From: Octopus vulgaris
Taxonomy: Eukaryota
Direction: 5' to 3'
Assembly (NCBI GenBank): GCA_951406725.2
Contig: OX597827.1
Span: 30,008,001-30,072,000, forward strand
DNA: 64,000 bases
A program made the position numbers and the translations under genes. This document shows, piece by piece, positions 25,745 to 54,814 of the stretch (positions are counted from its first letter, which is position 1; each line of letters opens with the position of its first letter). The notes beneath the pieces were generated by a model. That model worked only from the letters and a program-made list of their open reading frames with translations. It searched no databases and had not been told where the DNA came from.

Positions 25745-25864
25745 ATGTTGAGGCACAAACATTTAACATTGCAGTTAGCAACCTTTCTTCTAATGGCGGG
25801 GTTTGCAACGTCAAACATAGAATATGGAGACAGTTTGCAAACAAAAACAAAAAGCATTTGTGAA
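25745..25864 (+). CDS. Exon 1 (signal peptide) of giant secreted LPMO-like mucin gene
   Basis: MLRHKHLTLQLATFLLMAGFATSNIEYGDSLQTKTKSICE then GTAAGT. The phase-0 donor matches the phase-0 acceptor at 26676. Confidence 0.75.
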
Positions 25865-25900
25865 GTAAGTACATTTTAGTGATTTGATTGATATTATTAC

Positions 25901-25949
<49 letters not shown>

Positions 25950-26220: not shown

Positions 26221-26351
26221 TTTTGAGGGATTGCATTCTTTTATTTTGTTTTTGTTTTTCTTTCTATTTCTTTACGATCCTGGAATCAAACGAGCAAGAT
26301 GGGTTGATAAGTAAGCAACTTCGCTTTTCCTTTATTATTATCATTATTATT

Positions 26352-26478: not shown

Positions 26479-26675
26479 GGCTTCTTTCAGTTTCTATCTT
26501 CCAAATCTACTCACAAGGTTTTCGTCGGCCCGAGGCTATAATAGAAGCTTGCCCAAGCAACCATGTAGACACTCACGCTGGATTGTCCATGAAATTGTTA
26601 AACAACAGGACGTAAATTTTTTTTAAATATTTGCATTTTCGTAATTTTTTCTTTTTTCTTTCCCCCTTTTCTCAG

Positions 26676-26964
26676 ATATTCTCCAACCAAACTTTGTTAC
26701 AAAGGAACGTCTCTATAATATACTCAAATAAAATGAATAACTTGACAGTATATTTTCAAATGAAAAACCCAGCAAGGTTCAGTGTAGATTTATACATCTG
26801 TCCTCGATCCGACAACCATAGAGCGGCAACACATGAGTGTCTGTCAAAAAGGAAACTGGAACAAATATTAGTGAGCTCCAACTCTTCAACAGTGATGGTC
26901 CTTGCGAAAATTCCGAAGGATCTCAGCTGTTCATATTGTGTGTTACAGTGGATCCTGACACAAT
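26676..26964 (+). CDS. Exon 2: degenerate chitin-binding type-4 / AA15 LPMO-like domain
   Basis: Polypyrimidine-CAG acceptor and T|GTAAGT phase-1 donor. VDLYICP..AATHECL..KIPKDLSCSYCVLQW resembles the AA15 consensus FxLCP..TQEC..LPxxLTCxxCVLQW (recalled, not searched). Confidence 0.75.
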
Positions 26965-27034
26965 GTAAGTTCCTGTTGTATTTTCACTATTTGTCTTGTC
27001 TTCGGCTCCTGTAGTCGATAAAGAAATTATTATA

Positions 27035-27096
<62 letters not shown>

Positions 27097-27165
27097 TAAT
27101 ATTATTATTACTATTATTATTATTAGTACTATTAATATTATTATTACTATTATTATTATTAGTAC

Positions 27166-27201
<36 letters not shown>

Positions 27202-27244
27202 TATTATTATTATTATTATTACTATTGTTGTTGTTGTTGTTGTT

Positions 27245-27710
27245 GAGCAAGAGAGCAGCGCATGCCATCAAAGTGACACGAGTACAAATATACAAAACCC
27301 AGTATATCAATTATGACTACCCGTCTGATAAGGATACACTAGGCACATGCATCACAACCATATGTGCGTAACATGGTGATCTCATATCAAGATAAACAGC
27401 ACAGGACCTTGCAGGTGGGGCCCAGTTAGAATTTTCTTCTGGTCGAGTGACCCATCCCGCTCAAAAGGTCCCTTGTTTAAGGATGTTGAACGAAACACCC
27501 ATATTTCCGGGGGTGAACTATTCAAACCCCAAAGAATCCCTCTCAACACATGGCTACTTCTGTTCGTGATCGGAGATGCACATATCGTCAGCCACTAAGG
27601 AACATGCTCGACTGGTTAAGGTCAAACAACTGACAAGCAAATCTGTGGTATTGAGCAGAATATTTGCTGTCGCCCATCTTTTATACCAAGACAAAATGTA
27701 CTGCCAATCA
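27245..27710. mobile_element. Interspersed repeat between (TTA)/(TTG) microsatellites, unclassified
   Basis: GC-richer island bounded by trinucleotide repeats; no ORF. Confidence 0.35.
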
Positions 27711-27778
<68 letters not shown>

Positions 27779-27842
27779 CATTATTATTATTATTATCAAT
27801 ATTGTTATTATTATTATTATTATTAATATCATTATTATTATT

Positions 27843-30035
27843 ATTCAGTAGTTTTATTTTTTATAGCGTGCTTTTACTTCACTACCGAGCCTAGCTCTGT
27901 GTGCCTTGGGTATGTGCTGTGATTTGTTGTGATGCTCTGATGGTTATTGTGTGGAAAGTGTTCTGCGTAGGATGTGTGCAGTGCCTAGTAGTGCAATTTT
28001 CTGTATGTTATATGTGTTTGTAAGTCCTGGTGTTTTTGTTATGTATTTGTCTGAATATATTTTTTTTATCATGCCTAATGCAACTACTATGATAGGAATT
28101 GTTTCTGTTTTTAGATTCCACATACTGGTTACCTCTATTTCCAGGTCTTTGTATTTTGAAAGTTTCTCCATTTCTTTTATAGACACGTTGTCATCTGCCG
28201 GTATTAATACATCAATTAGAAAGCATTTTTTTTCTTCATGATGTCTGACAACTATATCTGGTCTGTTGGCCTTAATTTCTCCATCTGTGTGTATCGGCAT
28301 ATCCCAGAGTATGGTTGCTTTCTCGTTTTCTGTGACCTTTTCTGGTGTGTGCCTATACCATCTTTTTTCTGTTATTCCATAATGTTGGCATAGCTTCCAG
28401 TGTATGTAGGTTCCAACTCTGTCATGTCTGTGAATATATTCCTTCTTAGCCAGGACTGGGCAGCCAGAGATAATATGATTTATTGTTTCTTGTCCATCTC
28501 CACATATTCTGCAGTTACTTGTTATATTTCTTTTCATTACATGTTTTTGGTAATTTCTGGTGGGGAGGCTTTGGTCTTGTGCTGCAATTAAAAATCCCTC
28601 TGTCTCTGCTTTGAGTCCTGAGCTTCTCAACCATTGCTGGGATTTTTCTTTGTCTATTTCTTTTGCATTTAGTTTAGTCCAGTATTTACCATGAAGGGGT
28701 TTTTCTTGCCATCTTTTTATCATGGTTCTTTGCTGTTCTAGTTTTAGTTTGGATTTCATTTGTTTTATAGCTTTTGTTGTTTCTTCATCTTCTTCTTCTT
28801 CTTCTTCTTTATATTTGTTAGATGGTATGATTTCTTGTTTGTATTTGTCAGCTTCCTTAAATACTGAGAACAGTTTTTTTGTTTTGCTCGTGTTTTGCCG
28901 CTATTTGGATCAGTTTTCCTTCCTTCTGAAGTAGATATTTTTGCAGTCCTATGGTGGTTATTTTATAGTAGTTTTCCAGCTGTATAAGGCCTCTACCACC
29001 TTCTATACGTTGTATATATAGTCTTTCTATGTCAGATTTTGGGTGATGCATCCTAGATCCTGTCAGTATTTTTCTTGTTTTCCTATCTATTTTGGTCAGT
29101 TCATTTAGTGTCCAGTTAAGGATATTGTAGCTGTAACTTATAACTGGGACTGCTAAATTGTTAATACCTATTATCTTGTTTTTAGCATTGAGCTCTGTTT
29201 TTAGTATTGATTTAACTCGTCTATAATATTCTTTTTTTATTTTCTCTTTCATTTGTGTGTGTTGTGTCTTATCTAGTTCATGGATTCCTAAGTATTTGTA
29301 AGTTTGGCTTTGGTCTAATTCTTTTATTTCATTGGTTTTATCTAGTGTGATGTTGCTACTCTTAACTAGTTTTCCTCTTTTCATGGTTACTTTGGCGCAT
29401 TTTTCTAATCCAGTTTTCATATCTATTTCTTTGGTAAACCCATGAACTGTCTTTAATAGTGTTTCCAGCTGTTTGTCATTTGCAGCGTATAGTTTTAGGT
29501 CATCCATATATAAAAGGTGGCTGATCGTTTTGCCGTAACATTTATATCCGCATCCAGTTCTATTTAGCATATCAGATAGAGGTGACAGTGCCAAGCAGAA
29601 AAGGAGTGGAGAGAGCGTGTCTCCCTGGAATATTCCTCTTCTAATGGGGATGGCTTTGGTTTTCATGAGTCCCTCTTTTGTTTGGAGCTGTAGCACTGTT
29701 TGACATTTATTCATAGAGTGCCCTATAAATTTTATAATTGTTGGTGCTACTTTGTTAATGGCTAGTGTTTCGAGGATCCATGTGTGGGGGATGCTATCAA
29801 ACGCCTTTTTGTAGTCGGTCCAGGCCATACTGAGGCCTTTCTTCTTTCTGTGGCTGTCTTCAGCTATGGCTTTATTGATCATTAGTTGATCTTTACAGCC
29901 GTATGAACTTTTGCGGCATCCTTTCTGTTCTTCTGGAAACAGGTTGTTTTCGTCTAGGTGCTTGTTCAACATTTGCGATATCACTGCAGTAAATGCCTTG
30001 TACATCGTAGGGAGACAGGTTATTGGTCTATAGTT
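27843..30035 (-). mobile_element. 5'-truncated R4/Dong-like LINE (RT, CCHC, RLE), copy A, in (TAA)n
   Basis: EQKGC, DYKKAFDS, GIFQGDTLSP, YMDD; CRICG..ETINHIISGC, RHD, RPDIV..D, KxxKY. One frameshift in a homopolymer near 28875. Confidence 0.9.
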
Positions 30036-30116
30036 TTTTATTATTATTGGTCTGTAGTTTTCTTATTATTATTATTATTATTATTAGTTTTCTTCTTCTT
30101 CTTCTTCTTCTTCTTC

Positions 30117-30187
<71 letters not shown>

Positions 30188-30193
<6 letters not shown>

Positions 30194-32380
30194 TAGTTTT
30201 ATTTTTATAGCGTGCTTTCACTTCACTACCGAGCACAGCTCTGTGTGCCTTGGGTATGTGCTGTGATTTGTTGTGATGCTCTGATGGAAATTGTATGGAA
30301 AGTGTTCTGCGTAGGATGTGTGCAGTGCCTAGTAGTGCAATTTTCTGTATGTTATATGTGTTTGTAAGTCCTGGTGTTTTTGTTATGTATTTGTCTGAAT
30401 ATTTTTTTATCATGCCTAATGCACCTACTATGATAGGAATTGTTTCTGTTTTCAGATTCCACATTCTAGTTACCTCTATTTCCAGGTCTTTGTATTTTGA
30501 GAGTTTCTCCATTTCTTTTAGAGACACGTTGTCATCAGCCGGTATTGATACATCAATTACAAAGCAATTTTTTTCTTCATGATCTCTGACAACTATATCT
30601 GGTCTGTTGGCCTTAATTTCTCTATCTGTGTGTATCGGCATGTCCCAGAGTATGGTTGCTTTCTCGTTTTCTGTGACCTTTTCTGGTGTGTGCCTATACC
30701 ATCTTTTTTCTGTTGTTATTCCATAATGTTGGCATAGCTTCCAATGTATGTAGGTTCCAACTCTGTCATGTCTGTGAATATATTCCTTCTTAGCCAAGAC
30801 TGGGCAGCCAGAGATAATATGATTTATTGTTTCTTGTCCATCTCCACATATTCTGCAGTTACTTGTTATATTTCTTTTCATTACATGTTTTTGGTAATTT
30901 CTGGTGGGGAGGCTTTGGTCTTGTGCTGCAATTAAAAATCCCTCTGTCTCTGCTTTGAGTCCTGAGCTTCTCAACCATTGCTGGGATTTTTCTTTGTCTA
31001 TTTCTTTTGCATTTAGTTTAGTCCAGTATTTACCATGAAGGGGTTTTTCTTGCCATCTTTTTATCATGGTTCTTTGCTGTTCTAGTTTTAGTTTGGATTT
31101 CATTTGTTTTATAGCTTTTGTTGTTTCTTCATCTTCTTCTTCTTCTTCTTCTTTATATTTGTTAGATGGTATGATTTCTTGTTTGTATTTGTCAGCTTCC
31201 TTAAATACTGAGAACAGTTTTTTGTTTTGCTCGTGTTTTGCCGCTATCTGGATCAGTTTTCCTTCCTTCTGAAGTAGATATTTTTGCAGTCCTATGGTGG
31301 TTATTTTATAGTAGTTTTCCAGCTGTATAAGGCCTCTACCACCTTCTATACGTTGTATATATAGTCTTTCTATGTCAGATTTTGGGTGATGCATCCTAGA
31401 TCCTGTCAGTATTTTTCTTGTTTTCCTATCTATTTTGGTCAGTTCATTTAGTGTCCAGTTAAGGATATTGTAGCTGTAACTTATAACTGGGACTGCTAAA
31501 TTGTTAATACCTATTATCTTGTTTTTAGCATTGAGCTCTGTTTTTAGTATTGATTTAACTCGTCTATAATATTCTTTTTTTTATTTTCTCTTTCATTTGT
31601 GTGTGTTGTGTCTTATCTAGTTCATGGATTCCTAAGTATTTGTAAGTTTGGCTTTGGTCTAATTCTTTTATTTCATTGGTTTTATCTAGTGTGATGCTGC
31701 TACTCTTAACTAGTTTTCCTCTTTTCATGGTTACTTTGGCGCATTTTTCTAATCCAGTTTTCATATCTATTTCTTTGGTAAACCCATGAACTGTCTTTAA
31801 TAGTGTTTCCAGCTGTTTGTCATTTGCAGCGTATAGTTTTAGGTCATCCATATATAAAAGGTGGCTGATCGTTTTGCCGTAACATTTATATCCGCATCCA
31901 GTTCTATTTAGCATATCAGATAGAGGTGACAGTGCCAAGCAGAAAAGGAGTGGAGAGAGCGTGTCTCCCTGGAATATTCCTCTTCTAATGGGGATGGCTT
32001 TGGTTTTCATGAGTCCCTCTTTTGTTTGGAGCTGTAGCACTGTTTGACATTTATTCATAGAGTGCCCTATAAATTTTATAATTGTTGGTGCTACTTTGTT
32101 AATGGCTAGTGTTTCGAGGATCCATGTGTGGGGGATGCTATCAAACGCCTTTTTGTAGTCGGTCCAGGCCATACTGAGGCCTTTCTTCTTTCTGTGGCTG
32201 TCTTCAGCTATGGCTTTATTGATCATTAGTTGATCTTTACAGCCGTATGAACTTTTGCGGCATCCTTTCTGTTCTTCTGGAAACAGGTTGTTTTCGTCTA
32301 GGTGCTTGTTCAACATTTGCGATATCACTGCAGTAAATGCCTTGTACATCGTAGGGAGACAGGTTATTGGTCTATAGTTT
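30188..32380 (-). mobile_element. 5'-truncated R4/Dong-like LINE, copy B (tandem near-duplicate of copy A)
   Basis: Same domains and identical truncation point and flank. Frameshift in a T-run near 31575. Confidence 0.9.
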
Positions 32381-32438
32381 TTTATTATTATTGGTCTGTA
32401 GTTTTCTTCTTCTTATTATTATTATTATTAGTTTTCTT

Positions 32439-32522
<84 letters not shown>

Positions 32523-32523
<1 letters not shown>

Positions 32524-35100
32524 GAAAGCTCAGCTTATTTTGCTGGGTATGATGGAAAGTGTCGGCTGTCCACAGCCACCAGGCTAAGGTGACACTTGTT
32601 TACTGATCATGCTTCAAGAACCCCGCGAAGGATTCTTGCAGTTCCAAGCAATTCTGATTTTTGTAGGTGTTTTACCTTCAGAACACTTGCACCAATCTTT
32701 TTCAGCCATGTTGGTAGTTGAGTGCTGATACTTCCAAGTGCACCAGTTACTATTGGTATCACGTCTACTCTCTTCATTGATTATAATCTTCGTATTTCCA
32801 ACTTCAAATAGTCATAGTTGTTTATTTTTCTTCTTTCACATTGATCCTGTCGTCACCGGGGCATACTATGTCGATTATATTTCTCTTTTATTCACCGCAA
32901 CAATATCCGGTTTCTGGTTGGATGATTGCACTGGATCATTACATCACACAGGATTTTGCAGTTTTCATTTTCGGTGACTCATTTTGGGCTTTGTTCATAC
33001 CACGTCTTTGCTATTTGTAGGCCGTGATTTCCACAGAGCTCCCAATTTTCAGTTTTAATGACGCCTCCCTTCTTCGTGTATTTCAACAGTGGATCCACGG
33101 CACTTTTTATATACCACCCTAAGCTGTTTTCCCACCCTTTCTTCTGGACAAGCACAGCCTATTGGTATCACTCTTAAAGTAGAAGGTTCCGTGTACTGTC
33201 AACATTTTTCTGGTCTTGGTATCCATTTTCTTCATTTCTTTTTTTTTTTTGCCATTTTATAATTCCCCCTCCATACCGAAGTGATGCTATCGCCCATGTA
33301 TTAAGTGCTTGGCTTTTATTCCATCCAGTCAATTTTGAGCGCAACACTAACCTCAGTCTTCGGAAATACTCCATCCTCAGTTACTCTTTCATTTCCTTTT
33401 CCATTTTCTCGTTGAACTCTAGTGCACCGAGGTATTTGTATGCTTCCGTTTCAATTTGTTTAATGAGGTCTCTGTTCGATAATTCCATCCCTGGTAAGGA
33501 CTGTACCTTGTCTCTTTTTAGGTAGATTATTCGGCACTTCTTGAGTCCAAATTCCATTCTAATATCAGTACTAAAAACGAAGTGAACCGTGTTCACCAAG
33601 GAACTCACTTGAGTCTCATCTTTGTCATACAGTTTCAAATCATTCATGAAGAGGAGGCGGTAGATTGTTTGGGGTTTTCCCTTTAGTTGGTACCCCATGT
33701 TCATTTTCCTAAGTACCAAGTACTAAGTATCAAGCAGAGAACAAAAAGCAACGGAAATAGGCTATCACCCAAGAAAATCTCTCTTCTGATACCCACGGTG
33801 CCCAAGCTTTTTCCGTAAGATATCAGTTCAGTTTTCCATCCCACCATACTTCTCTTGGGGAAATCCGTCACATTCCTCGAAGTTCCAAACCGATCTAAGC
33901 ACTCAATGATCCACGAATGTGGAATCATACAAGCTTTACGTTAGTCAATCCAGGCCACTCCCGGATTTGTTCTTTGTTTACAATCTTGCATCAATTTTGT
34001 CTATCAATTGTTGATCTTCGGTACCTCTGCATCTCCCTCTACAGCCTTTTCGTTCGGGCGGTAATATATCGTTCTCATTGAGAAATTTATGCAGTTCTTC
34101 TGCAATTCCTTCTGACAGAAAATCCACATTGGTCTATAATTGTCAGCAGCATTTCCCTTCGATGCATCCTTCAGGCACAACACCACTCGACACTTTGTCA
34201 ACCAGCCCGGGATTTCTTCTTCTCCTTTGATCAATGCATTAAATTGTTCAGCGATCAATTTATGGCAACTATTGAACTTTTTTATTCGAAATCCCTGTAC
34301 ACCATCAGGTTCTTCTGCTTTCCAGTTGCTTATCTTTTTACTCATATTTCTCATACTCTCTTCTGTGAAGTGGGTAGCCTCTTGCTGGGGATAAGAAGCT
34401 GTTTGTTTCAGGATGTAGAGTCATTCAGCTGTAGTATTATGTTGTTCTTGCTTACTCCATATCTTACCCCAAAAAAGTCGACTTTCATTAGCGTCAGGGA
34501 CTAGTTTTTCACGTTTTTATCATCATTGATCTGTTGGTAAAATCTTTTTTGGTCGGTTCTAAACAATCTGTTTTGCTGGTATCGTTAAATCTGTTGTTAA
34601 GACCTAGTTAGCTTCGCTTTTTGTTTTCTTTTTGCATGTATGCGCTGCTTCAGTTCTTCAGTTATAGCATTTAGGCCTTTTGTATCTACACCATACTTCT
34701 TCCTCACTTTTTCGAATTTCCATTTCTTTTTCCTGACAAATACTGTTCAAGGAGTTCATATCTTCAGAAATTCTCCTTTTCCACCACAGTTGTTTATTTC
34801 CTCTTCTATCCGTCGTTGTTCTATTCTCAGTAGTTCACAGGCCCATCCTTTCCACCAAAATATTACAAGCAGCCCTGATAAGATTATTTGTGTGATGTTC
34901 TTTGTTTCAATGTGTCTCAATACATTATTGACTTTATTCATCTCTTGATTTAGTCTCCATTGGTTAGCTGTCTTCAAGTCGCACATAAATTCTGTCCCTT
35001 CTGTATTTAATAGATCTAAAATTTTATCTATCATTAATCAACCTTCATTGTTTGAATAGTCACTGATCTCAATTCTTTCCCAATTCACGATATTATAATC
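32523..35100 (-). pseudogene. Older degenerate R4-like LINE (different family)
   Basis: NWKAEEPDGVQGF, NYRP, IPHSWIIECL, IFLGDSLFPLLF, LLFMNDLKLY, YKYLG. Many stops and frameshifts; bounded by (TTA)n and (TTG)n. Confidence 0.8.
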
Positions 35101-35135
35101 TTGCGAACAATTGTCTATCTATTATTATTATTATT

Positions 35136-35174
<39 letters not shown>

Positions 35175-35196
35175 GCTGCTGCTGCTGTTGTTGTTG

Positions 35197-35235
<39 letters not shown>

Positions 35236-35265
35236 TTGTTGTTGTTGTTGTTGTTATTATTATTA

Positions 35266-35301
<36 letters not shown>

Positions 35302-35419
35302 TATTACTTACTATTATTATTATTATTATTTATTATTATTTTTATTTTTTTATTTTTTTTATTATTATTTTTTATTATTATTATTATTATTATTATCATA
35401 GTTATTATTTTCATATGCA

Positions 35420-36813
35420 TTCAACAGATTAGACTTAGAAAAGAAAAAACCCTAACATCGGGCTACAAGTAACCTTAGATGCCAAAAACCCTCCTAAGTA
35501 TCCTAGCTGTCCCTAATAACACTGTTTTCTGGAGCTGTGTTCTAAACTGTTTTTTATGCCTATTTCCTCTAATCATCTGTTCAGGTCTTTAAGGATAGTT
35601 CCCAATGCACCTGTAATTAGTGGGATACATTTTATCCGCCCTTTCCATAGTCTCTGTAACTAAATAGCTAGGTCCAGGTACTTTACTATTTTTTCTATAC
35701 TTCTATTACTCTGTCAGTCTGAATGTTGAAGTCCCACAACATCTTGTATTTCTTACTTTTTAGTACTTTACTAGGTTCATGTTCATACCATTTATCAGTA
35801 TGTTCAAATCCTAGCTTTCTACATAGCTCCCAATGGATTACGCGGCAAGCTGGTAGAATTGTTAGCACGCCGGACAAAATGGTTAGCGGCATTGCATCCG
35901 TCTTTACGTTCTGAGTTCAAATTCCGCCGAGGTCGACTTTGCCATTCACAGTTTCAAGGTCGATAGATTAAGTACCAGTTGAGTACTGGGATTGATGTAA
36001 TCGACTATCCTTCTCCACAAAATTTTTAGGCCTTGTGCCTATAGTAGAATGGATTATTATTATTATTGTTATTATTATTATTTTTTTTTTAAACTCTCAG
36101 CTTATTTTGTTGGATATTCTGATAAGTGTCAGCTGTCCACAGCCAGCAAACTAAGGCGACACTTGTTTCCAATACTAATTTTTAGTCTCTGTCAAGTCGC
36201 GGTAAGGACCTCAGACAGGTTGTTTTTTAAGCAGTATGCATACAGTTTCAAGTAAAGGCCATTTTTGCAATACACCAAGATTGTAGAGTATTTCTAAAGT
36301 GTCCAGATGTTTCTTCAGGTAGAGTGGTATTGAACCCAATGCTCCGATGACAACAGGAACACCCTTTATGTTTGACTCTCGCAGCTTCCATATCTTGGCG
36401 ATCTCACTTTTCAGGTTTCCATATTCTTTCTTTCATCATAATATGTTGATTTCCTGACGCTGCTACAACGATTATCAAGAACCCTTGCTTATCCCTCCTA
36501 AAGGCTATATATCCGCCCTTCGGTGTTCTAACATCTTGTCTTTCAGGAAGCCAAAGTCCCAAATCTTTGCCTTCCTGTTATCGTCTGTTACTTTTTCCGG
36601 TGTACGCTGGTACCAAGCAGCAATTTCCTCATATCCATACTTCTGGTATAGTAGCCAGTGAAGGCTTTGAGCTACCCTTTCGTGTCTGCGTTTGTACCCT
36701 TTTTGCGCAAGTTTTTCACAAGCACTAGCAATATGAGTCACGCTTTCGACTTTCTTCCTGTACATTCTGCAGAGGTTCGTTGCACTTGTGGACTTCGAGA
36801 TATATGAAGTCAA
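35420..36813 (-). pseudogene. Two further RLE-LINE 3' fragments (35420-35840, 36090-36813) with a family A SINE (~35860-36045, +) between them
   Basis: IHWELCRKLG..WYEHEP..LWDFNIQTD; CRM..ESVTHIASAC..RRHE..LHW..IWDF..RADI. Confidence 0.75.
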
Positions 36814-36899
36814 TTATATTTTTAGGGTGGAATTCGAAGTAGATAAAACCACAAATAACAGCAGCTCTGTCATGTTTCCAATCCCGCAATCAGCCTTCT

Positions 36900-38330
36900 A
36901 CTAGTGTTTATAGTATATATCTGTGGTAAAGGTGGTGTCCTTTTTAATAACCATTATCTCTAGGAATGGTAATTTGGTACTACTCATCTCCTTTGTAAAT
37001 TGGAGAGACGGGCGTTCAGGAGGATATTAAACTCTTTCAAAGTATTTAGAGATTCTGTCCAGATTATGAAACAATTGTCAAAGTATTTCTTCCATGCCTT
37101 TTCAATATACTTTCTAAGTTCAGGGCTATAGTTTTCCTCTACTTCTTGGTAGACTTGTTGCTCTAAATATCCCATTACAGAGTTCGCGTAAACGGGGGAA
37201 AACCTCGTTCCCATCACTGTGTCGTTAATTTGGATGTAATTTTTTTCCATTGATGAAGAATGTATAGTACTCCATAAGCCTGACTGTGTCTAATATAACT
37301 GGCACTGTGAATCTGTTGGGGATCACTTCTCTATGTTTTTCTACCCAGTATTTAATCACCTTTATTCCTAAATCATGTAGAATATTGGTGTAACTAAGTA
37401 GAAGTGAATTTGTTTCAGTTCTTTTGAGAAGATGGGACAGGAAGTCGATGTCATCCCGAATGCAAGTGGTATATAAGTAGATAGTGGTTTCAAAACAATG
37501 TCAATAAGATTGCTTAGACGTTGGGTAGGGCATGCTGGACCAGTTGTAATAGGTCTAAGTTTTAAGTCTTTTGGATGCAATAATTTTATGTACTCATTTT
37601 TTAGTTCTTTTACTGCATGCTGAATATCTTTTGATTTATGTATTTTCGGTAAGCTATAGAATTTGCTGGGTTTTGGCTCGAAATTAGTGAGGTAGTCTCT
37701 TTCATTATCGGTAAGTGAGTTGTGGTGTTTTGAAACCAGGTTGTTGATCTTCTTCATGACGTGGTGGTCTATATTAGAAGGTATTTCACAATATAAGGTT
37801 GTGTCCCTCAGTTGGCCCTCAGCCAAATCCTTGTAGCATTCTACATCCATAATAACAATTGCATCCTCTTTATCTGTTTGTTTAATTATTATTGTTTGAT
37901 CGTTTTGTATACGTTTAAGTGCAGACATTTCGGATTTGTTAATATTTGGCCTAACATTAGTATTGTCTCTAAGGAGAAATTTAGACAAGATATCAATGTA
38001 TTGGTCAAGATAGTTATTTCTTCCTTTTGGTGGGGCAAATTTTGATTTATTCTTTACTAGGGATTCATCAATCTGATTAGTTTTATTTGTGAATAATTCT
38101 ACAAGTCGTAACTTACAACAGAATTTTTTAATATCCTCCTTTAGTTCTTGGTGGTTGACTGTTGATGTAAATTTCAGTTCTTTTGACATAAGTTGGATTT
38201 CATCATTGTCAAGATCTCTTTTGGATAAATTAACTATTTTAGGATCTATATGTTGAGTAGTTTGGGGTATGTTACCTCTTGGATTTTATCTTTCTCCATG
38301 TCTGTTTTCGTTCGGTTTCCTTGTATGTCT
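36900..38330 (-). pseudogene. Penelope-like element reverse transcriptase remnant
   Basis: IIIKQTDKEDAIVIMD, KFYSLPKIHK, LRPIT, MGTRFSPVYAN, WKKYFDNCFIIW (degenerate RYxDD). These are PLE-type RT motifs; frameshifted. Confidence 0.8.
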
Positions 38331-38615
38331 CCACTATCATGTTTTTGCTACCAACTTTGACCCTCTCAAATCCTAATTTTTATTTTGGTTTGCGGGAGCA
38401 ACTGCCTTCGAAGACTCATATTGTCGTTCAGTGCTCGAAATGAGGAGCAGATGGACAGCCGACATCTGATTAAGGGTCGTTATATTACTTGTCCTGTTTT
38501 CCATTTGTTTCTCTCGTTGCTCATATATTCAACTCTTTTGTTTTCGCATTTCATGTTGTTTATGGTTTGTGACGTCCTGTACCCACATATACATATATAT
38601 ATATGTGTGTGTATG

Positions 38616-38665
<50 letters not shown>

Positions 38666-38734
38666 CATACAAACAAGCAGTCGCATATATATGTATGTAC
38701 ATATATATGCATGTATATTATATATGTACATGTG

Positions 38735-38783
<49 letters not shown>

Positions 38784-38890
38784 TATGTATATTATATATA
38801 TATACATACAAATATATATATATATATATATTTTCATACATACATACCTACGTATATACATATATGTATGTATGTATTATGTGTATTAGC

Positions 38891-38932
38891 ACTAACGTTG
38901 TGTTTCTTTCTCATACGCTTCATCCAATGTAG
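38891..38932 (+). promoter_or_regulatory. Branch point and 3' splice site of intron 2
   Basis: ACTAAC, pyrimidine tract, then TAG. The phase-1 junction gives ..TQ-S-NGEKVGC.. in frame with ORF 39007. Confidence 0.7.
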
Positions 38933-41900: not shown

Positions 41901-44900
41901 TACAGCAACACCTGCAACCTCACCAACAACTACACCTACAAACTCTCCAACCACCACACCAACAACAACACCAACAACAACACCTACAACCACACCAACA
42001 ACTACTCAAACATCCACACCCACAACAACACCTACAACAACACCTTCGACCACACCAACAACAAAACCAACAACCTCACCAACAACTACACCAACAGCCA
42101 CACCTACATCCACACCAACAACACCTACAACCTCTCCAACCACCACACCAACAACAACACCAACAACAATACCAACAACCACTCCAACCACCACACTAAC
42201 AACAACACCTACATCCACGCCAACAACCACACCAACATCCTCACCAACAGCAACACCAACAACTACACCAACAACCACACCAACGACAACACCAACAACA
42301 ATACCAACAACCACTCCAACCACCACACTAACAACAACACCTACAACCACGCCAGCAACCACACCAACATCCTCACCAACAACAACACCTACAACAACAC
42401 CTAGAACTTCACCAACAACCACACCTACAACCTCTCCAACCACCACACCAACAACTACACCAACAACCACAGCAACAACCTCCCTAACAACCACACCAAC
42501 AACAACAGCAACCACTCCAACCACCACACCAACTACTACACCAACAACCACACCTACATCCACACCAACAACACCTACAACCACACCAACAACCACACCT
42601 TCAACTACACCTACAACCACACCTACATCCACACCAACAACCACACCAACAACCACACCAACATCCTCACCGACAACAACACCTACAACCACACCTACAA
42701 ACTCACCAACAACACCTACAACCTCTCCAACCACCACACCAACAACCACGCCAACAGCAACACCTACAACCACACCTACAACATCACCAACAACCACCTA
42801 CAACAACCTCCCAACCACCACACCAACAACAACACCTACAACCACGCCAACAGCCACTCCAACATCCACACCCACAACAACACCTACAACAACACCTTCG
42901 ACCACACCAACAACCTCACCAACAACGACACCAACAACAACACCAACAACCACACCTACATCCACACCAACAACACCTACAACCACTCCAACCACCACAC
43001 CAACAACAACACCAACAACACCACCAACCACGCCAACAACCACTCCAACATCCACACCAACAACAACACCTACAACAACCCCTTCGACCACACCAACCCC
43101 TTCGACCACAAAAACAACAACCTCACCAACAACGACACCAACAACAACACCAACAACTACACCAACAACAACACCAACGACAACACCAACAACAATACCT
43201 ACAACCACTCCAACCACCACACCAACAACAACACCTACAACCACGCCAACAACCACACCAACATCCACACCAACAACAACACCTACAACCACACCTACAA
43301 CCTCACCAACAACCACACCTACAACCTCTCCAACCACCACACCAACAACTACACCAACAACCACACCAACAACCTCCCTAACAACCACTCCAACAACAAC
43401 AACTACAACCACTACAACCACGGCACCAACTACTACACCAACAACCACACCAACAACACCTACAACCACACCAACAACCACACCTACAACCACACCAACA
43501 TCCACACCAACAACAAAACCAACAACAACAACCCAACACCCACAACCACACCAACAACAACGCCAACTACGACACCAACAACCACACCTACAACCACACC
43601 AACAACAACACCCACAACCACACCTACAATCACACCAACAACAACACCTACAACCACACCAACAACCACACCTACAACTACACGTACAACCACACCTACA
43701 ATCACACCAACAACGACACCTACAACCACACCAACAACCACACCAACAACCACACCAACAACAACACCAACAACCACACCTACAACCACACCAACAACAA
43801 CACCTACAACCTCTCCGACCACCACACCAACAACCACGCCAACAGCAACACCTACAACCACACCTACAACATCACCAACAACCACACCTACAACAACACC
43901 AACAACCACACCTACAACATCACCAACAACCACACCTACAACTTCTCCAACCACCACACCAACAACAACACCAACAACAACACCTACAACCACGCCAACA
44001 GCCACTCCAACATCCACACCCACAACAACACCTACAACAACACCTTCGACCACACCAACAACCTCACCAACAACGACACCAACAACAACACCAACAACTA
44101 CACCAACAACCACACCTACATCCACACCAACAACACCTACAACCACTCCAACCACCACACCAACAACAACACCAACAACAACACCTACAACCACGCCAAC
44201 AACCACTCCAACATCCACACCAACAACAACACCTACAACAACCCCTTCGACCACACCAACCCCTTCGACCACAAAAACAACAACCTCACCAACAACGACA
44301 CCAACATCAACACCAACAACTACACCAACAACCACACCAACGACAACACCAACAACAATACCTACAACCACTCCAACCACCACACCAACAACAACACCTA
44401 CAACCACGCCAACAACCACACCAAACAACAACACCTACAACCACACCTACAACCTCACCAACAACCACACCTACAACCTCTCCAACCACCACACCAACAA
44501 CTACACCAACAACCACACCAACAACCTCCCTAACAACCACTCCAACAACAACAACTACAACCACTACAACCACGGCACCAACTACTACACCAAAAACCAA
44601 ACCTACATCCACACCAACAACACCTACAACCACACCAACAACCACACCTACAACCACACCAACATCCACACCAACAACAAAACCAACAACAACACCCACA
44701 ACCACACCAACAACAACGCCAACTACGACACCAACAACCACACCTACAACCACACCAACAACAACACCCACAAACACACCTACAATCACACCAACAATAA
44801 CACCTACAACCACACCAACAACCACACCTACAACTACACGTACAACCACACCTACAATCACACCAACAACGACACCTACAACCACACCAACAACCACACC

Positions 44901-47900
44901 AACAACCACACCAACAACAACACCTACAACCACACCTACAACCACACCAACAACAACACCTACAACCTCTCCGACCACCACACCAACAACCACGCCAACA
45001 GCAACACCTACAACCACACCAACAACATCACCAACAACCACACCTACAACAACACCAACAACCACACCTACAACATCACCAACAACCACACCTACAACTT
45101 CTCCAACCACCACACCAACAACAACACCAACAACAACACCTACAACCACGCCAACAGCCACTCCAACATCCACACCCACACAACAACACCAACAACCACA
45201 CCAACAACCTCACCAACAACGACACCAACAACAACACCAACAACTACACCAACAACCACACCTACATCCACACCAACAACACCTACAACCTCTCCAACCA
45301 CCACACCAACAACAACACCAACAACCTTCGACCACACCAACAACCTTCGACCACACCAACAACAAAACCAACAACCTCACCAACAACGACACCAACAACA
45401 ACACCAAAAACTACACCAACAACAACACCAACGACAACACCAACAACAATACCTACAACCACTCCAACCACCACACCAACAACAACACCTACAACCACGC
45501 CAACAACCACACCTACAACCTCTCCAACCACCACACCAACAACTACACCAACAACCACACCAACAACAACCACACCAACAACCACACCAACAACCACACC
45601 AACAACCACTCCAACCACCACACCAACTACTACACCAACAACCACACCTACATCCACACCAACAACCACACCTACATCCACACCAACATCACCTACAACC
45701 ACACCAACAACCACACCTTCAACTACACCTACAACCACACCTACAACCACACAAACAATCACACCAACAACCACACCAACATCCACACCAACAGCATCAC
45801 CTACAACCACACCTACAACATCACCAACAACCACACCTACAACCTCTCCAACCACCACACCAACAACAACACCAACAACAACACCTACAACCACGCCAAC
45901 AGCCACTCCAACATCCACACCCACAACAACACCTACAAGAACACCTTCGACCACACCAACAACCTCACCAACAACGACACCAACAACAACACCAACAACT
46001 ACACCAACAACCACACCTACATCCACACCAACAACACCTACAACCACTCCAACCACCACACCAACAACAACACCAACAACAACACCTACAACCACTCCAA
46101 CAACCACTCCAACATCAACACCAACAACAACACCTACAACAACCCCTTCGACCACACCAACCCCTTCGACCACAAAAACAACAACCTCACCAACAACGAC
46201 ACCAACAACAAAACCAACAACTACACCAACAACCACACCAACGACAACACCAACAACAATACCTACAACCACTCCAACCACCACACCAACAACAACACCT
46301 ACAACCACGCCAACAACCACACCAACATCCTCACCAACAACAACACCTACAACCACACCTACAACCTCACCAACAACCACACCTACAACCTCTCCAACCA
46401 CCACACCAACAACTTCACCAACAACCACACCAACAACCTCCCTAACAACCACTCCAACAACAACAACTACAACCACTACAGCCACCACACCAACAACCAC
46501 ACCAACAACCACACCAACAACCACACCAACAACCACACCTACAACCACACCAACATCCACACCAACAACAAAACCAACAACAACACCACCACAACCACAC
46601 CAACAACAACACCAACAACAACACCAACACACTACACCAACAACCACACCTACATCCACACCAACAACACCTACAACCACACCAACAACCACACCTACAA
46701 CCACACCAACATCCACACCAACAACAAAACCAACAACAACACCCACAACCACACCAACAACAACACCAACAACGACACCAACAACCACACCTACAACCAC
46801 ACCAACAACAACACCCACAACCACACCTACAATCACACCAACAACCACACCTACAACCACACCAACAACCACACCTACAACTACACGTACAACCACACCT
46901 ACAATCACACCAACAACGACACCTACAACCACACCAACATCCACACCAACAACAACACCTACAACCACACCTACAACCTCACCAACAACAACACCTACAA
47001 CCTCTCCGACCACCACACCAACAACCACGCCAACAGCAACACCAACAACCACACCTACAACATCACCAACAACCACACCTACAACATCACCAACAACCAC
47101 ACCTACAACATCACCAACAACCACACCTACAACCTCTCCAACCACCACACCAACAACAACACCAACAACACACCTACAACCACGCCAACAACCACTCCAA
47201 CATCCACACCCACAACAACACCTACAACAACANNNNNNNNNNNNNNNNNNNNNNNNNNNNNNNNNNNNNNNNNNNNNNNNNNNNNNNNNNNNNNNNNNNN
47301 NNNNNNNNNNNNNNNNNNNNNNNNNNNNNNNNTACACGTACAATCACACCTACAATCACACCAACAACGACATCTACAACCACACCAACAACAACACCAA
47401 CAACTACACCAACAACAACACCCACAACCACACCTACAACCACACCAACAACCACACCAACAACCACACCAACAACAACATCTACAACCATACCAACTAC
47501 TACACCAACAACCACACCTACATCCACACCAACAACACCAACCACACCAACAACCACACCTACCACTACACCTACAACCACACCTACAACCACACCAACA
47601 ACCACACCTACAAGCACACCAACACCAGCACCAACATCAACACCTACAACCAAGCCAACAACCACTCCAACATCCACACCCACAACAACACCTACAACAA
47701 CACCTACAACAAAACCTTCGACCACACCAACAACAAAACCAACAACCTCACCAACAACGACACCAACAACCTCACCAACAACTACACCAACAACCACACC
47801 AACGACAAAACCAACAACAATACCTACAACCACTCCAAACACCACACCAACAACAACACCTACAACCACGCCAACAACCACACCCACAACCACACCAACA

Positions 47901-50900
47901 ACAACGCCAACTACGACACCAACAACCACACCTACAACCACACCAACAACAACACCCAGAACCACAACAACAACAACACCCACAAACACACCTACAATCA
48001 CACCAACAATAACACCTACAACCACACCAACAACAACACCTACAACCACACTAACAACCACACGTACAACCACACCTACAATCACACCAACAGCGACACC
48101 TACAACAACACCAACAACAACACCAACAACAACACCAACAACAACACCCACAACCACACCTACAATCACACCAACAACCACACCTACAACCTCCCTAACA
48201 ACCACACCAACAACAACACCTACAACCACTCCAACCACCACACCAACTACTACACCAACAACTACACCTACATCCACACCAACAACACCTACAACCACAC
48301 CAACAACCACACCTACAACCACACCAACATCCACACCAACAACAACACCTACAACCACACCTACAACCTCACCAACGACCACACCTACAACCTCTCCAAC
48401 CACCACATCAACAACCACACCAACAACAACATCTACAACCACACAAACTACTACGCCAACAACCACACCTACATCTACACCAACAACACCAACAACCACA
48501 CCAACAACCACACCAAAAACCACACCTACCACTACACCTACAACCACACCTACAACCACACCAACAACCACACCTACAACCACACCAACAACAGCAACAA
48601 CAACACCTACAACCACACGCCAACAACCACTCCAACATCCACACCCACAACAACACCTACAACAACACCTACAACAACACCTTCGACCACACCAACAACA
48701 AAACCAACAACCTCACCAACAACGACACCTACAACAACACCTACAACCTCACCAACAAGCACACTTACAACCTCAGCCACAACCACACCTACAACCACAC
48801 CAACAACCACGCCCACCACCACACCAACAACAACACCAACAACAAAACCTACAACCACTCCAACAACAACACCTGCAACCACACCAACAACTACCCCAAC
48901 AACCACACCTACAACCACAACAACATCACACCAACAATCACACCAACAACAACACCTACAACTACAGCAACAATTGCACCAACAACCACAACAACACCAA
49001 CAACACCAACAACCAACCACACTTACAACCTCACCCACAACCACACCTACACCCACACCAACAACCACACCAACAACAACACCAACAACTATACCAACAA
49101 CAACACCAACTATCACACCTACATCCACACCTACAACCATACCAACAACAACACCAACAACAACACCAACAACAACACCAACAACAACACCTACAACAAC
49201 ACCCACAACATCACCAACAACCACACCTACAACCTCCGCCACAACCACACCTACAACCACACCAACAACCACGCCCACAACCACACCAACAACAACACCA
49301 AAAACAACACCTACAACCACTCCAGCAACACCTGCAACCACACCAACAACAACACCTACAACCAGACCTACAACAACACCAACAACCACACCTACAACCA
49401 CACCAACAACCACACCAACAAAAACACCTACAACCACTCCAACAACCACACCTACAACTACACCTACAACCACACCTACAACCACACCAACAACGACACC
49501 AACAACAATACCAAAAACAACACCAACAACTACACCAACAACAAAACTTTCAACCACATCAACAACCACACCAACAACAACACCAACAACCACACCAACA
49601 ACCATACCAACAACCACACCTACAACCACTCCAACAACAACACCTCCAACCACACCTACAACCACACCAACAACAACACCTACAACCACAACCTCTACAA
49701 CCTCACTAACATCCACACCTACAACCTCCCTAACAACCACACCAACAACAACACCTACAACCACACCAACAACCACATCTACAACTACACCTACGACCAC
49801 ACCTACAACCACACCAACAACCACACCTACAACAACACCAACATCCACACCAACAACAACACCTAGAACCACACCTACAACCACACCTACAACTTCTCCA
49901 ACCACCACACCATCAACCACACCAACAACAACACCTACAACCACACCTACAACCTCTCCAACAACCACACCTACAACCTCTCCAACCACCACACCAACAA
50001 CAACACCAACAACAACACCTACAACCACACCCACAACCTCTCCAACCACCACACCATCAATCACACCAACAACCACACCAATAACAACACCTACAACCAC
50101 GCCAACAACCACTCCAACATCCACGCCGACAACAACACCTACAACAACACCTTCGACCACACCAACAACAAAACCAACAACCTCACCAACAACGACACCA
50201 ACAACAACACCAACAACTACACCAACAACCACACCAACGACAGCACCAACAACAATACCTACAACCACTCCAACCACCACACCAACAACAACACCTACAA
50301 CCACGGCAACAACCACACCAACATCCTCACCAACAACAACACCTACAACCACATCTACAACCTCACCAACAACCACACCTACAACCTCTCCAACCACCAC
50401 ACCAACAACAAAACCAACAACCTCACCAACAACGACACCAACAACAACACCAACAACTACACCAACAACCACACCTACATCCACACCAACAACACCTACA
50501 ACCTCTCCAACCACCACACCAACAACAACACCAACAACAACACCTACAACCACGCCAACAACCACTCCAACATCCACACCCACAACAACGCCTACAACAA
50601 CAACTTCGACCACACCAACCACAAAACCAACAACCTCACCAACAAGGACACCAACAACAACACCAACAACTACACCAACAACCACACCAACGACAACACC
50701 AACAACAATACCTACAACCTCTCCAACCACCACACCAACAACAACACCTACAACCACACCAACAACCACACCAACATCCTCACCAACAACAACACCTACA
50801 ACCACACCTACAACCTCACGAACAACCACATCTACAACCTCTCCAACAACCACACCATCAACAACACCAACAACAATACCTACAACCACTCCAACAACAA

Positions 50901-53900
50901 CACCAACAACAAAACCAACAACCTCACCAACCACCACACCATCAACAACACCAACAACTACACCAACAACCACACCTACATCCACACCAACAACACCTAC
51001 AACCTCTCCAACCACCACACCAACAACAACGCCAACAACGACACCTACAACCACGCCAACAACCACTCCAACATCCACACACACAACAACGCCTACAACA
51101 ACACCTTCGACCACACCAACCACAAAACCAACAACCTCACCAACAACGACACCAACAACAACACCAACAACTACACCAACTACCACACCAACGACAACAC
51201 CAACAACAATACCTACAACCTCTCCAACCACCACACCAACAACAGCACCTACAACAACACCCACAACCACACCTACAACCTCACCAACAACCACACCTAC
51301 AACGTCTCCAACAACCACACCAACGACAACACCAACAACAATACCTACAACCACTCCAACCACCACACCAACAACAACACCTACAACCACGCCGACAACC
51401 ACACCAACATCCTCACCAACAACAACACCTACAACCTCACCAACAACCACACCTACAACCTCTCCAACCACCACACCAACAACAACACTAACAACGACAC
51501 CTACAACCACGCCACCAACCACTCCAACATCCACACCCACAACAACACCTACAACAACACCTTCGACCACACCAACAACAAAACCAACAACCTCACCAAC
51601 AACGACACCAACAACAACTCCAACAACTACACCAACAACCACACCTACATCCACACCAACAACACCTACAACCTCTCCAACCACCACACCAACAACACAC
51701 CAACAACAACACCTACAACCACGCCAACAACCACTCCAACATCCACACCCACAACAACGCCTACAACAACACCTTCGACCACACCAACCACAAAACCAAC
51801 AACCTCACCAACAAGGACACCAACAACAACACCAACAACTACACCAACAACCACACCAACGACAACACCAACAACAATACCTACAACCTCTCCAACCACC
51901 ACACCAACAACAACACCTACAACCACACCAACAACCACACCAACATCCTCACCAACAACAACACCTACAACCACACCTACAACCAACACCAACAACCACA
52001 CCTACAACCTCTCCAACCACCACACCAACAACTACACCAACAACCACACCAACAACAACACCTACAACTACAGCAACAACTTCACCAACAACCACATCTA
52101 CAACCACACCAACTACAACACCAACAACAACACCTACAACCACGCCAACAACCACTCCAACAACCACACCTACAACCATGCCTCCAAGCACACCAACAAC
52201 AATACCGGCAACCACGCCAACAACAATACCAACAACACCCACAACCACACCAACAACAACACCAACAACAACACCCACAACCACACCAACAACAACACCC
52301 ACAACCACACCTACAATCACACCAACAATGACACCTACAACCACACCAACAACAACACCTACAACCACTCCTACAACCTCACCAACAACCACACCTACAA
52401 CGTCCCTAACAACCACACCAACAACAACACCTACAACCACTCTAACCACCACACCAACTTCTACACCAACAACCACACCTACATCCACACCAACAACACC
52501 TACATCCACACCAACAACCACACCTACAACTACACCTACAACCACATCTATAACCACACCAACAACCACACCTACAACCACACCAACAACCACACCAATA
52601 ACAATACCAACAACTACACCTACAACAACACCAACTACTATACCAACAAACACACCAACAACAACACCCACAACCACACCTACAACAACACCAACAAACA
52701 CACCAACTACTACACCAACAACCACACCTACAACCACACCAACAACAACACCCTCAACCACACCTACATCCACACCAACAACCACGCCAACAACCACACC
52801 AACAACAACACCTACAACCACACCTACAACCTCACCAACAACCACACCCACAACCTCACCAACAACCACACCAACAACTACACCTACAACCACTTCAACC
52901 ACCACACCAACAACAACACCTGCAACCACACCAAGTCCTACACCATCAACCACACCTACATCCACACCAACAACCCCTACAACCACACCAACAACAACAC
53001 CTACAACCACACCAACAACCACCCCTACAACCACCGCCTCATCAACGTTATCTACTCTTTATTGCACTACATATTCTCTGACCTCTCTTGTTCCTACATC
53101 TGCTACTTCATCCGTTTTCTCAATTCCAACCTCTCTGCTACCCTCGAGTGGAACTACCTATTTGTCTACTTCCGTTTTCGCTTCCACTATTTCTTCTCTC
53201 ATTAGTACAACCACACCAACCACCCCAGAATCTACAACTCCAATCACTACCCCCACAGCGCCAACAACATCACCAACAACAACGCCATCATCACCAGCAA
53301 CAACGCCAATCTCAACTCCAACAACATCTCCAACATCCTCACCAACAACCACAGCAACAACCACACTATCACTAGCTCCAACTACAACACCTTCAACGGC
53401 ACCTACTACCACTCCAACAACGGCACCCACATCAACAAACAGTTCCTTTGCAACCAACAGTACCTCTGCAGCAAACAGTACCTCTGCAGCAAACAGTACC
53501 TCTGCAGCAAACAGTACCTCTGCAGCAAACAGTACCTCTGCAGCAAACAGTTCCCCAGCAGCAATACCATCTGAAGCCCCCACAAATATTTTTTTGGCCC
53601 CCAGTCCTCCTCCTTTCAAAGCCTTTACTCAATTACCTTATTTCACTATATTGAATCTGTCGGATGGTTTTGCTATATACTGCTACACAAATGTACCTAG
53701 TTCGGCTACAGAGCCTTCAAAACCGTCTCAAAGTGAACCCGTATCCTCTGATTTCACGTCCGATGTCACTACTCCTCTGACGACATCAAAAGCGCCTTTG
53801 ACCACAGTTTCGTCTGAGTTATCCACCCCTAGTTATGAAACAACGCTTTTGGAAACTTCTTCGCCGTTGTTAACAACTCCAACAACAGCTACGCCTACCA

Positions 53901-54814
53901 CGCCATCTACAGAACAAACTACATCCACTCCAACACCGATAACTACACCAACAACCATACGACCAACAACACTAATAACAACAGCAACCACCATGCCAGT
54001 AACAACAACACCAACAGCATCGCCAACAACAACACCAATATCTACGCCAACAGCAGCGACAACTATGCCAACAATCACGTCAACAACAACTACGCCTACC
54101 ACGCCATCTACAGTACAAACTACATCCACTCCAACACCGATAACTACACCAACAACATTAATAACAACAGCAACCGCCATGCCAGCAACAACGCCTGCAA
54201 CAACAACACCAACACAATCGCCAACAACAACACCAACTACCATGCCAACTACCACACCAACAACAACACAAACTACCACACCAACCACCCCTTTTGCAAC
54301 ATTTTCTAGTGCAACAACTACAACGTTTGACCAAAGTACAGCTGCAGTTCCTTTATATTCCAGAGTTAAGCTGTGGAAGGTGAATTCGAAATACGTCAGA
54401 CGTTGCCGTTGTAAATTTCGTAAATGTCGCCGTTTACATAGTCAGAGTCGACCCCCTTGTCTTTGCATATCGCGACCTCTTAGACGTTGTCAATGTCTCA
54501 GTAGGGTGAGAAAATTTCGTCGTTCTCCTGCTTTGCGAAAACATCCTCACCGTCGTAGTCACAGACGAATTCACTTCAACCGTCGTTTCCCTCCGCGTCG
54601 CAATGCCTCTCGTCACAACACTCGACGAGGCTACCTATCACCCCGTCGCCGTTCACGAAACCGCATCTCACAAAGGCGAACTTCGCCTCGTTACCCTCTA
54701 CGTACGCGTTGTCATCACGGTGGCTCTCGTAGTGTTGACTCTTCAAGAATAAGCCACACCTCAAGACATCATTTCCAAGTGTTGTCTCAACATTATACGC
54801 CACCACAAAGTTAA
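38933..54814 (+). CDS. Exon 3 (~15.9 kb): end of LPMO-like domain, five 6-Cys modules, Arg/Ile block, PTT mucin stalk, ANSTSA repeats, Arg-rich tail
   Basis: ORFs 39007-48012 and 48974-54814 joined through a continuous Pro/Thr repeat with several apparent frameshifts and a 100-N gap. Stop TAA at 54812-54814. Confidence 0.75.
39055..39745 (+). repeat. Five tandem Cys-rich modules C-x14/15-(W/F)C-x3-C-x4/5-CP-x3-C-x-C
   Basis: For example WCYRLCKGRYCPRTHCIC, WCYVICERGYCPKSFCIC and WCLNNCPLGNCPKSHCEC. Confidence 0.9.
40190..53035 (+). repeat. ~13-kb coding minisatellite (12-bp unit CCW ACA ACM ACA = PTTT) with higher-order duplications
   Basis: Direct reading; the plus strand is almost G-free. 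Assembly gap at 47233-47332. Confidence 0.95.
53456..53551 (+). repeat. Perfect 18-bp coding repeat x5 (NSTSAA; N-glycosylation sequons)
   Basis: aacagtacctctgcagca repeated five times. Confidence 0.95.

Follow-up and report, generated by a model that had tools for sequence, protein, structure and literature searches.

We found that gene B, the gene under study in a 64,000-nucleotide (nt) window of the Octopus vulgaris genome (contig OX597827.1; C14:30008001-30072000), belongs to a real, conserved family of pseudo-enzymes and has a new mucin architecture. Our reading, to which we give a probability of about 0.5, is that gene B is one of five tandem octopod genes with a brace-less head derived from the AA15 lytic polysaccharide monooxygenases (LPMOs), and that its product is likely a secreted, non-catalytic mucin attached to chitin via five six-cysteine (6-Cys) modules. 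The pseudo-enzyme family, and not giant size, is the main finding. A giant stalk is not a defining trait of the cluster, since three of the five paralogs have short Thr linkers or none, and a long stalk is confined to paralogs B and D. From its N-terminus, the product of gene B runs through a signal peptide (at about amino acids (aa) 1-22, judged by eye together with its cleavage site), a head of ~130 aa with six Cys, the modules (aa 178-407), an Arg/Ile segment (aa 427-490), a Pro/Thr array, a Ser/Thr-rich end and a basic tail; positions are in window numbering unless marked (Table 1).

An earlier note on this DNA, made from the letters alone, had proposed that three exons splice in phase (0, then 1) to yield a signal peptide, an LPMO-like head and five Cys modules. 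At the sequence level, the coordinates and phases were borne out, with GT-AG ends on exons 1-3 and an in-frame join that encodes all of these parts. The exon 1 layout is repeated in paralogs A, C, D and E, the exon phases are the same in all five paralogs, and gene models from other species join the three parts as well: the model of the orthologue in Argonauta hians (GAB1603675.1, 52% identical) and those of paralog E from both O. sinensis and O. bimaculoides. In a further relative, the cuttlefish-type P0017 (a 619-aa protein on a 3,680-nt Logan contig), all three exon parts are contiguous; since its cluster-mates show exon 2 with intron-like flanks, this contig probably derives from cDNA. Together, the paralog phases, the relatives' gene models and P0017 lend indirect support to the splicing of gene B.

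In agreement with what the earlier note had claimed, four lines of evidence support descent of the head from AA15 LPMOs: a profile match in sequence, introns and C-terminal modules held in common with them, and a predicted fold that is compatible with theirs. The LPMO_10 check that it suggested fell short in Pfam, where no family member reached the cut-off (best E 0.095) and the canonical AA15 P0018 was missed too, but a profile of six head sequences found the PDB entry 5MSZ (TdAA15A of Thermobia domestica) at E 3e-7, and the second-best of its 13 matches stood at E 0.26. Aligned by hhalign against eight canonical AA15 rows, the head alignment gave a probability of 98.3% (E 1.9e-14). A search of 1.84 billion proteins with the head profile returned nine matches, comprising four family members, three canonical AA15s and two repetitive sequences without family motifs (P0005 and P0006), which were set aside, and tblastn of two canonical AA15s within the region found exon 2 of gene B at E 2e-5 and 3e-8. 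Intron positions are also common to gene B and the canonical AA15 genes of this genome: the Trp codon of CVxQW starts 16 nt ahead of a phase-1 intron in 6/6 canonical loci found and in 5/5 pseudo paralogs, and the one canonical gene checked has His1 and, as in gene B, a phase-0 intron a few codons after the first Cys. Pfam gave no significant family for the head, modules or tail of gene B, and a weak search among proteins of 479-2000 aa returned no homolog. Matches of the head to LPMO-like clusters in the ESM Atlas (0.81-0.87) and of the modules (0.78) lie below the 0.9 mark and serve as leads only.

The excerpted description of TdAA15A (PMC5823890) places His1, His91, Ala89 and Tyr184 at the catalytic site, with Tyr24 and Tyr166 framing the substrate face. 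Gene B resembles this enzyme in its homologous beta-sandwich core, its C..ATxEC and CxxCVLQW motifs and its signal peptide, but judged from sequence it is without every catalytic AA15 feature tested, namely His1, His91/Ala89, the axial and substrate-face aromatics and the ten Cys. Before the modules, His occurs only at residues 4 and 6 (both in the signal peptide), 88 and 93; none stands at the brace position or between aa 7 and 87, so the predicted mature N-terminus is His-free, as the earlier note had stated. The segment it equated with the second-His motif reads YFQMKNPARFSVDLYICP, as quoted there, and puts Ala73 in the His91 column, with Asn71 in place of Ala89 and Lys141 in place of the axial Tyr184. 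The His91 column holds F, D, Y, S or T in the paralogs and orthologue as compared with His in 8/8 canonical rows, and both His1 and His91 are absent from 5/5 paralogs, the Argonauta orthologue and P0017. The mature part of exon 1 is His-free in paralogs A, C and E, while paralog D has a His at 37 that lies in the mature segment but not at the N-terminus. A substitute metal site at His88/His93 was rejected, since neither residue is kept in the Argonauta orthologue. A hidden His-bearing exon, which the earlier note had raised, was likewise rejected, since the 264 kb around gene B contain no HGxLxxPPxR motif and no AA15 N-terminal tblastn match.

The losses extend beyond the copper ligands. The N-terminal subdomain, which had been described as shortened, is for the most part deleted, and the loop from the Trp to the last Cys, which carries Tyr166, has 11 residues in gene B compared with 27-30 in P0008 and P0018. 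The columns of Tyr24 (first Cys minus 7) and Tyr166 (Trp plus 8) are deleted or replaced, and the axial Tyr, which is kept in paralogs A, C, D and E and in P0017, is lost. With six Cys (39, 82, 95, 125, 128 and 144) instead of the ten conserved in AA15, ~130 aa instead of ~190 and a fused mucin stalk, gene B differs from TdAA15A. Its head also bears four N-glycosylation sequons (aa 44-109).

All five modules of gene B fit the pattern C-X15-C-X3-C-Xn-C-X4-C-X-C, and the spacing of four of them (15,3,4,4,1) is that of the modules in the Dreissena polymorpha AA15 XP_052216258.1 (P0018), the fifth having n = 5 instead of 4 in the third gap. Compared with P0018, the gene B modules are 42% identical over 67 aa (pairwise E 3e-10), and the same modules adjoin exons of canonical AA15 genes in this genome. 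Two such genes, at C18:6.38 Mb (- strand) and C18:54.90-54.94 Mb, are candidates for the parent lineage; at C18:6.38 Mb, the last strand, linker and modules share one exon, as in the pseudo genes. Extracts from two papers (PMC9156745, PMC12955341) describe similar 6-Cys repeats in insect group I LPMO15, which, according to the former, have 6-9 residues in the third gap and are unrelated to CBM14. The Dreissena protein and insect LPMO15-1 thus share with gene B a head followed by 6-Cys modules and Thr-rich linkers, but they keep the brace and have two modules, whereas gene B has five modules, no brace and a stalk of >4,000 residues. The available part of a review of LPMO modules (PMC10154629) does not mention the 6-Cys module, and by sequence the modules had no match in Pfam or PDB. 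An AlphaFold prediction of the modules from a single sequence reached a predicted local distance difference test score (pLDDT) of 43 and was unusable.

The five paralogs (A-E) lie head to tail on C14 at 29.99-30.19 Mb. Paralogs A (353 aa, three modules), C (342 aa, two modules) and E (270 aa in O. sinensis, two modules) are short, and paralog D (1,576 aa) repeats the plan of gene B with three modules, an unbroken ~3.4-kb Pro/Thr stalk and a short basic tail; gene B has five modules and the longest stalk in the cluster. Among the compared paralog rows, exon 2 identity is 23-41%. Exon 2 of paralog C shares 94/96 residues with O. sinensis, and the N-terminus of paralog E shares 37/37. An alignment search of 1,586 candidates gave eight matches, seven family members and one Dreissena AA15, and over all searches the family members came from Argonauta hians, O. 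sinensis, O. bimaculoides and Sepia pharaonis, with five more without a species name. The cuttlefish-type form is without both His, reads SPKQR and CCVCPD where AA15 has PPQR and CGVCGD, and has gene B as its best match in this genome. In a tree of 18 exon-2 rows, the nine pseudo rows fall on one side of a 100/100 branch, which points to a likely single origin, although this branch is a long one and deletions are common to the rows. The tail of the Argonauta model (P0001) is rich in N/T/H/Y, the composition expected when a Thr stalk is translated in the wrong frame, so this gene probably has a stalk as well.

The O. sinensis RefSeq model XP_036364626.1 (P0002) joins exon 1 to exon 2 but then continues into the second intron, so that exon 3, which encodes the modules, is left out. 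In paralog C, both the linkers and the modules of exon 3 (C14:30089363-30089983) are rich in His/Tyr/Met (HYAHYPMHH..), and in paralog D a Tyr/His patch precedes the first module; these parts could form a new site for metal binding or cross-linking away from the head. The portion of an octopus skin-mucus proteome supplement that was searched (PMC10138644) contained no match for the family accessions or for two short peptides.

The stalk has the composition of a mucin. The T+P+S fraction is 0.86-1.00 in all 12 segments of the Thr/Pro path, as in the long tandem Pro/Thr/Ser (PTS) domains of mucins. In the Thr/Pro phase of the array, 95% of second codon positions are C, T or G occupies 15% of third compared with 2.5% of second positions, and stop triplets number 0/24. 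Because of these biases, we conclude that the array is under coding constraint; when repeat copies are compared, third codon positions account for 318 of 564 mismatches, in blocks that overlap and so are not independent. Higher-order repeats recur at offsets of ~1,150-1,170 nt (43534-44690 and other blocks), and identity between blocks reaches 99% over 491 nt. Two segments are strongly basic: the tail (54350-54811) has 47 R+K, one D/E and eight Cys in 154 aa and is hydrophilic, and the Arg/Ile segment has 21 R+K, 20 Ile and no acidic residue in 64 aa. The latter is built largely from AGA/ATA codons, one step from the ACA of the stalk, and its RRRR site is convertase-like. Pfam showed no VWD, C8, TIL, CK, SEA, NIDO or AMOP in exon 2, in the head portion of exon 3, in the modules or tail, or in the region that follows the array, and gene B does not fall into the gel-forming or membrane mucin classes.

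Several results weigh against our reading, some of them from the predicted fold of the head and others from the integrity and expression of gene B. The AlphaFold and Foldseek check that the earlier note had suggested was run on the head of the Argonauta orthologue (54% identical in exon 2) and not on the gene B protein, with a model built from 11 family rows, none of them a canonical AA15. The predicted structure is a beta-sandwich (pLDDT 76.8), and Foldseek ranked 5MSZ first at E 1e-3, a thin margin over the second match at E 1.3e-3. Self-association of the head scored 0.00, a value that carries no verdict. By VIA, 5MSZ reached Z 6.5 (root-mean-square deviation (rmsd) 3.2, 106 aligned), below generic Ig-like folds (7.9-8.4) and NPC2, the best VIA match among Foldseek's top 1000 (Z 8.4, rmsd 3.0, 107 aligned, 6% identity); the copper protein CrdA reached Z 7.9. 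The expected sandwich with 5MSZ on top was thus predicted, but the match is not LPMO-specific, and we regard the fold as compatible with AA15 and not diagnostic of it. The NPC2 and CrdA scores would fit a stripped head that now serves as an ML/NPC2-like or other small-ligand sandwich, or that binds metal via a new site. However, Z 7-8 is common for any beta-sandwich in the VIA calibration, the sequence and introns indicate AA15, His88/His93 are unconserved and Pfam and profile searches gave no sequence support for an ML domain; we consider this explanation improbable, the least favored of those weighed here. Somewhat less improbable, though still unlikely, is that the brace-less head is itself a chitin or carbohydrate anchor. 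The head is intact in five paralogs and across octopods and cuttlefish, the axial-column Tyr survives in most of the cluster and in P0017, and LPMO domains are known to bind crystalline chitin. On the other hand, the Tyr24 and Tyr166 columns are gone and gene B has lost the axial aromatic too. Since the binding face was lost along with the copper site, and since the head carries four sequons, we expect that it is not the anchor, and the Trp-bearing 6-Cys modules are the more likely candidate. Of the earlier proposal that an enzyme fold was reused as a non-catalytic chitin or carbohydrate anchor, the non-catalytic part agrees with the loss of the brace, but the head as the anchor is weakened by the loss of the Tyr24 and Tyr166 positions.

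As assembled, the spliced frame of gene B departs from Thr/Pro at ~43531 and stops at 48012 (3,162 aa), and the stop at 54812-54814 is reachable only via ten frame switches (43531, 44424, 45178, 45327, 47168, 48615, 48926, 49012, 51695 and 51982) and across a 100-N gap. The length of ~5,400 aa given in the earlier note is a reconstruction rather than an assembled open reading frame: it is a fair one, with a best Thr/Pro path of ~5,420 codons including the gap, but the continuous frame was not borne out. If the switches were real, gene B would be recently broken or yield a shorter product, and only its paralogs would be functional. The unbroken stalk of paralog D in the same assembly speaks for this, and no junction read, transcript or peptide of gene B was obtained. 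The case for assembly error is also weakened by the spread of the shifts, whose clustering toward the gap reaches significance when all of exon 3 is considered (P 0.018) but loses it when the test is confined to the array (P 0.094). Of 24 sequencing-run rows, ten contained part of exon 3; seven of these ten were guessed to be RNA, and none is recorded as such. Contigs of four of these runs left exon 1 uncovered, covered two bins at the end of exon 2 at low depth in one run and held no junction, which is no evidence either way. The tails of gene B and paralog D, similar in composition, gave no significant alignment. Against a real break, however, exons 1-2 and the splice sites are free of lesions, as are the first 4.6 kb and the last 2.8 kb of exon 3, and the post-array frame runs open to the gene end, with 0 stops in 592 codons compared with 19 and 16 in the other two frames. 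Moreover, the 7 of 10 shifts that could be compared with other unit copies are 1-2 nt indels in A/C runs, as against 2-47 in-frame copies each, and the gap marks a point where the assembly broke within an array whose ~1.15-kb higher-order repeats are hard to assemble. We consider assembly errors probable and clearly likelier than decay, and a broken gene B as unlikely as an anchoring head. Slightly less likely again is a mucosal defence or barrier molecule, in which the modules or cationic segments would bind non-chitin microbial or host glycans and a convertase acting at the polybasic site (aa 427-431) would free the head and modules from the stalk. The two strongly cationic segments, the fast divergence of exon 2 among paralogs and the three of five paralogs that are small secreted proteins without a long stalk would suit this role, but the modules stem from a chitin-active enzyme family, and the examined parts of paralogs A, C, D and E have no Arg/Ile segment after the modules.

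Returning to the secreted mucin held on chitin by its modules, we propose that a molluscan-type AA15, with a catalytic domain, a Thr linker and 6-Cys modules, was duplicated and that one duplicate would have lost its copper site and binding face before octopods and decapodiforms (cuttlefish) split, while retaining the modules. The cuttlefish-type form may keep traces of the N-terminal PPxR and CGxCGD, and octopods would have trimmed the head further and expanded the gene in tandem. The head could persist as a disulfide-bonded, N-glycosylated structural cap, with the modules bound to chitin or to a similar polysaccharide at the surface, and the linker of two octopod copies may have grown into an O-glycosylated stalk with a cationic end. 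By analogy with known chitin-bound mucins, the secreted product, held on chitin by several modules, would form a hydrated coat on a chitinous surface, and the polycationic tail could grip acidic glycans and so cross-hold the coat.

Insect peritrophins and invertebrate intestinal mucins are secreted proteins that combine small Cys modules with a Pro/Thr O-glycosylated stalk, and insect intestinal mucins form a chitin-tethered coat via CBM14. Gene B resembles them in its Cys modules, its stalk and the proposed mode of action; they differ in using CBM14, peritrophins are not known to have an LPMO-derived head, and on their sequence the gene B modules do not appear to be the CBM14 of peritrophins and intestinal mucins. 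Another parallel is LsAA9B, a fungal AA9 without the histidine brace as cited in an extract of PMC10354095, which is likewise an LPMO-fold protein without a copper site that is kept by selection. Unlike that fungal AA9, gene B derives from an animal AA15, has undergone large deletions and tandem expansion, and is fused to a mucin. AA15 genes in octopods were already known, according to the accessible text of PMC10952591; for a brace-less animal AA15 lineage or the family accessions, we found no description in searches of the open-licence PMC and bioRxiv literature.

Table 1. Features of gene B and the start of its downstream neighbor, in window numbering
Feature	Positions	Strand	Details
Exon 1	25745..25864	+	120 nt, ATG at 25745, phase-0 donor; predicted signal peptide and short His-free mature N-terminus; ends two codons past the start of Cys39
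Exon 2	26676..26964	+	289 nt, core of the AA15-derived beta-sandwich; Ala73 in the His91 column, Asn71 in the Ala89 column; phase-1 donor 16 nt after the start of the Trp132 codon
Intron 2	26965..38932	+	11,968 nt; contains long interspersed nuclear element (LINE) fragments and microsatellites
Exon 3 start	38933..38990	+	last strand of the head; Lys141 in the axial Tyr184/Phe column, Cys144; AA15 GNxWG..GCG.Q loop absent
Five 6-Cys modules	39055..39744	+	C-X15-C-X3-C-X4/5-C-X4-C-X-C; Trp before the second Cys (Phe in module 1)
Basic Arg/Ile segment	39802..39993	+	64 aa, opens with a polybasic RRRR motif
Pro/Thr mucin array	40188..53034	+	~4,270 codons, unit ~TTTP; 10 frame switches in the assembly
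100-N assembly gap	47233..47332	.	inside the Pro/Thr array
Ser/Thr-rich stalk end	53035..54349	+	mostly non-tandem; frame open
Polycationic tail and stop codon	54350..54814	+	CxC motifs; tail proper 54350-54811
Exon 1 of paralog C (next in cluster)	61378..61509	+	matches the N-terminus of O. sinensis XP_036364626.1

The window also contains several retroelements. An apparently intact two-open-reading-frame (ORF) LINE lies upstream of gene B (19271-24625, - strand), with an ORF1 frame of 615 aa that includes a zinc knuckle and an ORF2 of 1,149 aa with endonuclease, reverse transcriptase (RT) and zf-RVT domains. Within intron 2, two tandem 5'-truncated LINE copies (27846-30062 and 30191-32412, both - strand) are identical in 2,189/2,227 columns and separated by (TTA)n, which indicates either a recent duplication or an assembly duplicate. 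A 305-aa open frame further along the intron (37368-38285, - strand) had no significant Pfam match and looks like part of another retroelement.

Our findings describe a chitin-cutting enzyme family that appears to have been recycled in cephalopods into secreted non-enzymes. The series starts from canonical AA15, passes through the cuttlefish-type form, in which remnants of the N-terminal motifs persist, and ends with the trimmed forms of octopods. Since the members are annotated publicly as uncharacterised or hypothetical, and two models are broken (P0001 and P0002), surveys of CAZymes or mucins do not pick the family up. In its broadest form, which we put forward tentatively and at somewhat less than even odds, coleoid cephalopods would have an undescribed pseudo-LPMO lineage, parallel in animals to the brace-less AA9s of fungi, in which a chitin-cutting AA15 was disarmed once, kept in octopods and cuttlefish and expanded to five tandem octopod genes, moving from degrader to coating; gene B would be its extreme, a mucin of >5,000 residues tethered by five modules that shields or lubricates chitin. 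If this is true, the family would be a direct test of what the 6-Cys module of animal LPMOs, so far uncharacterised, has as its ligand. Being easy to express, the short paralogs (270-354 aa) could probe this module, which is also found on the essential insect group I LPMO15s, and a mucin built on 6-Cys modules would represent a new route to a chitin-anchored coat.

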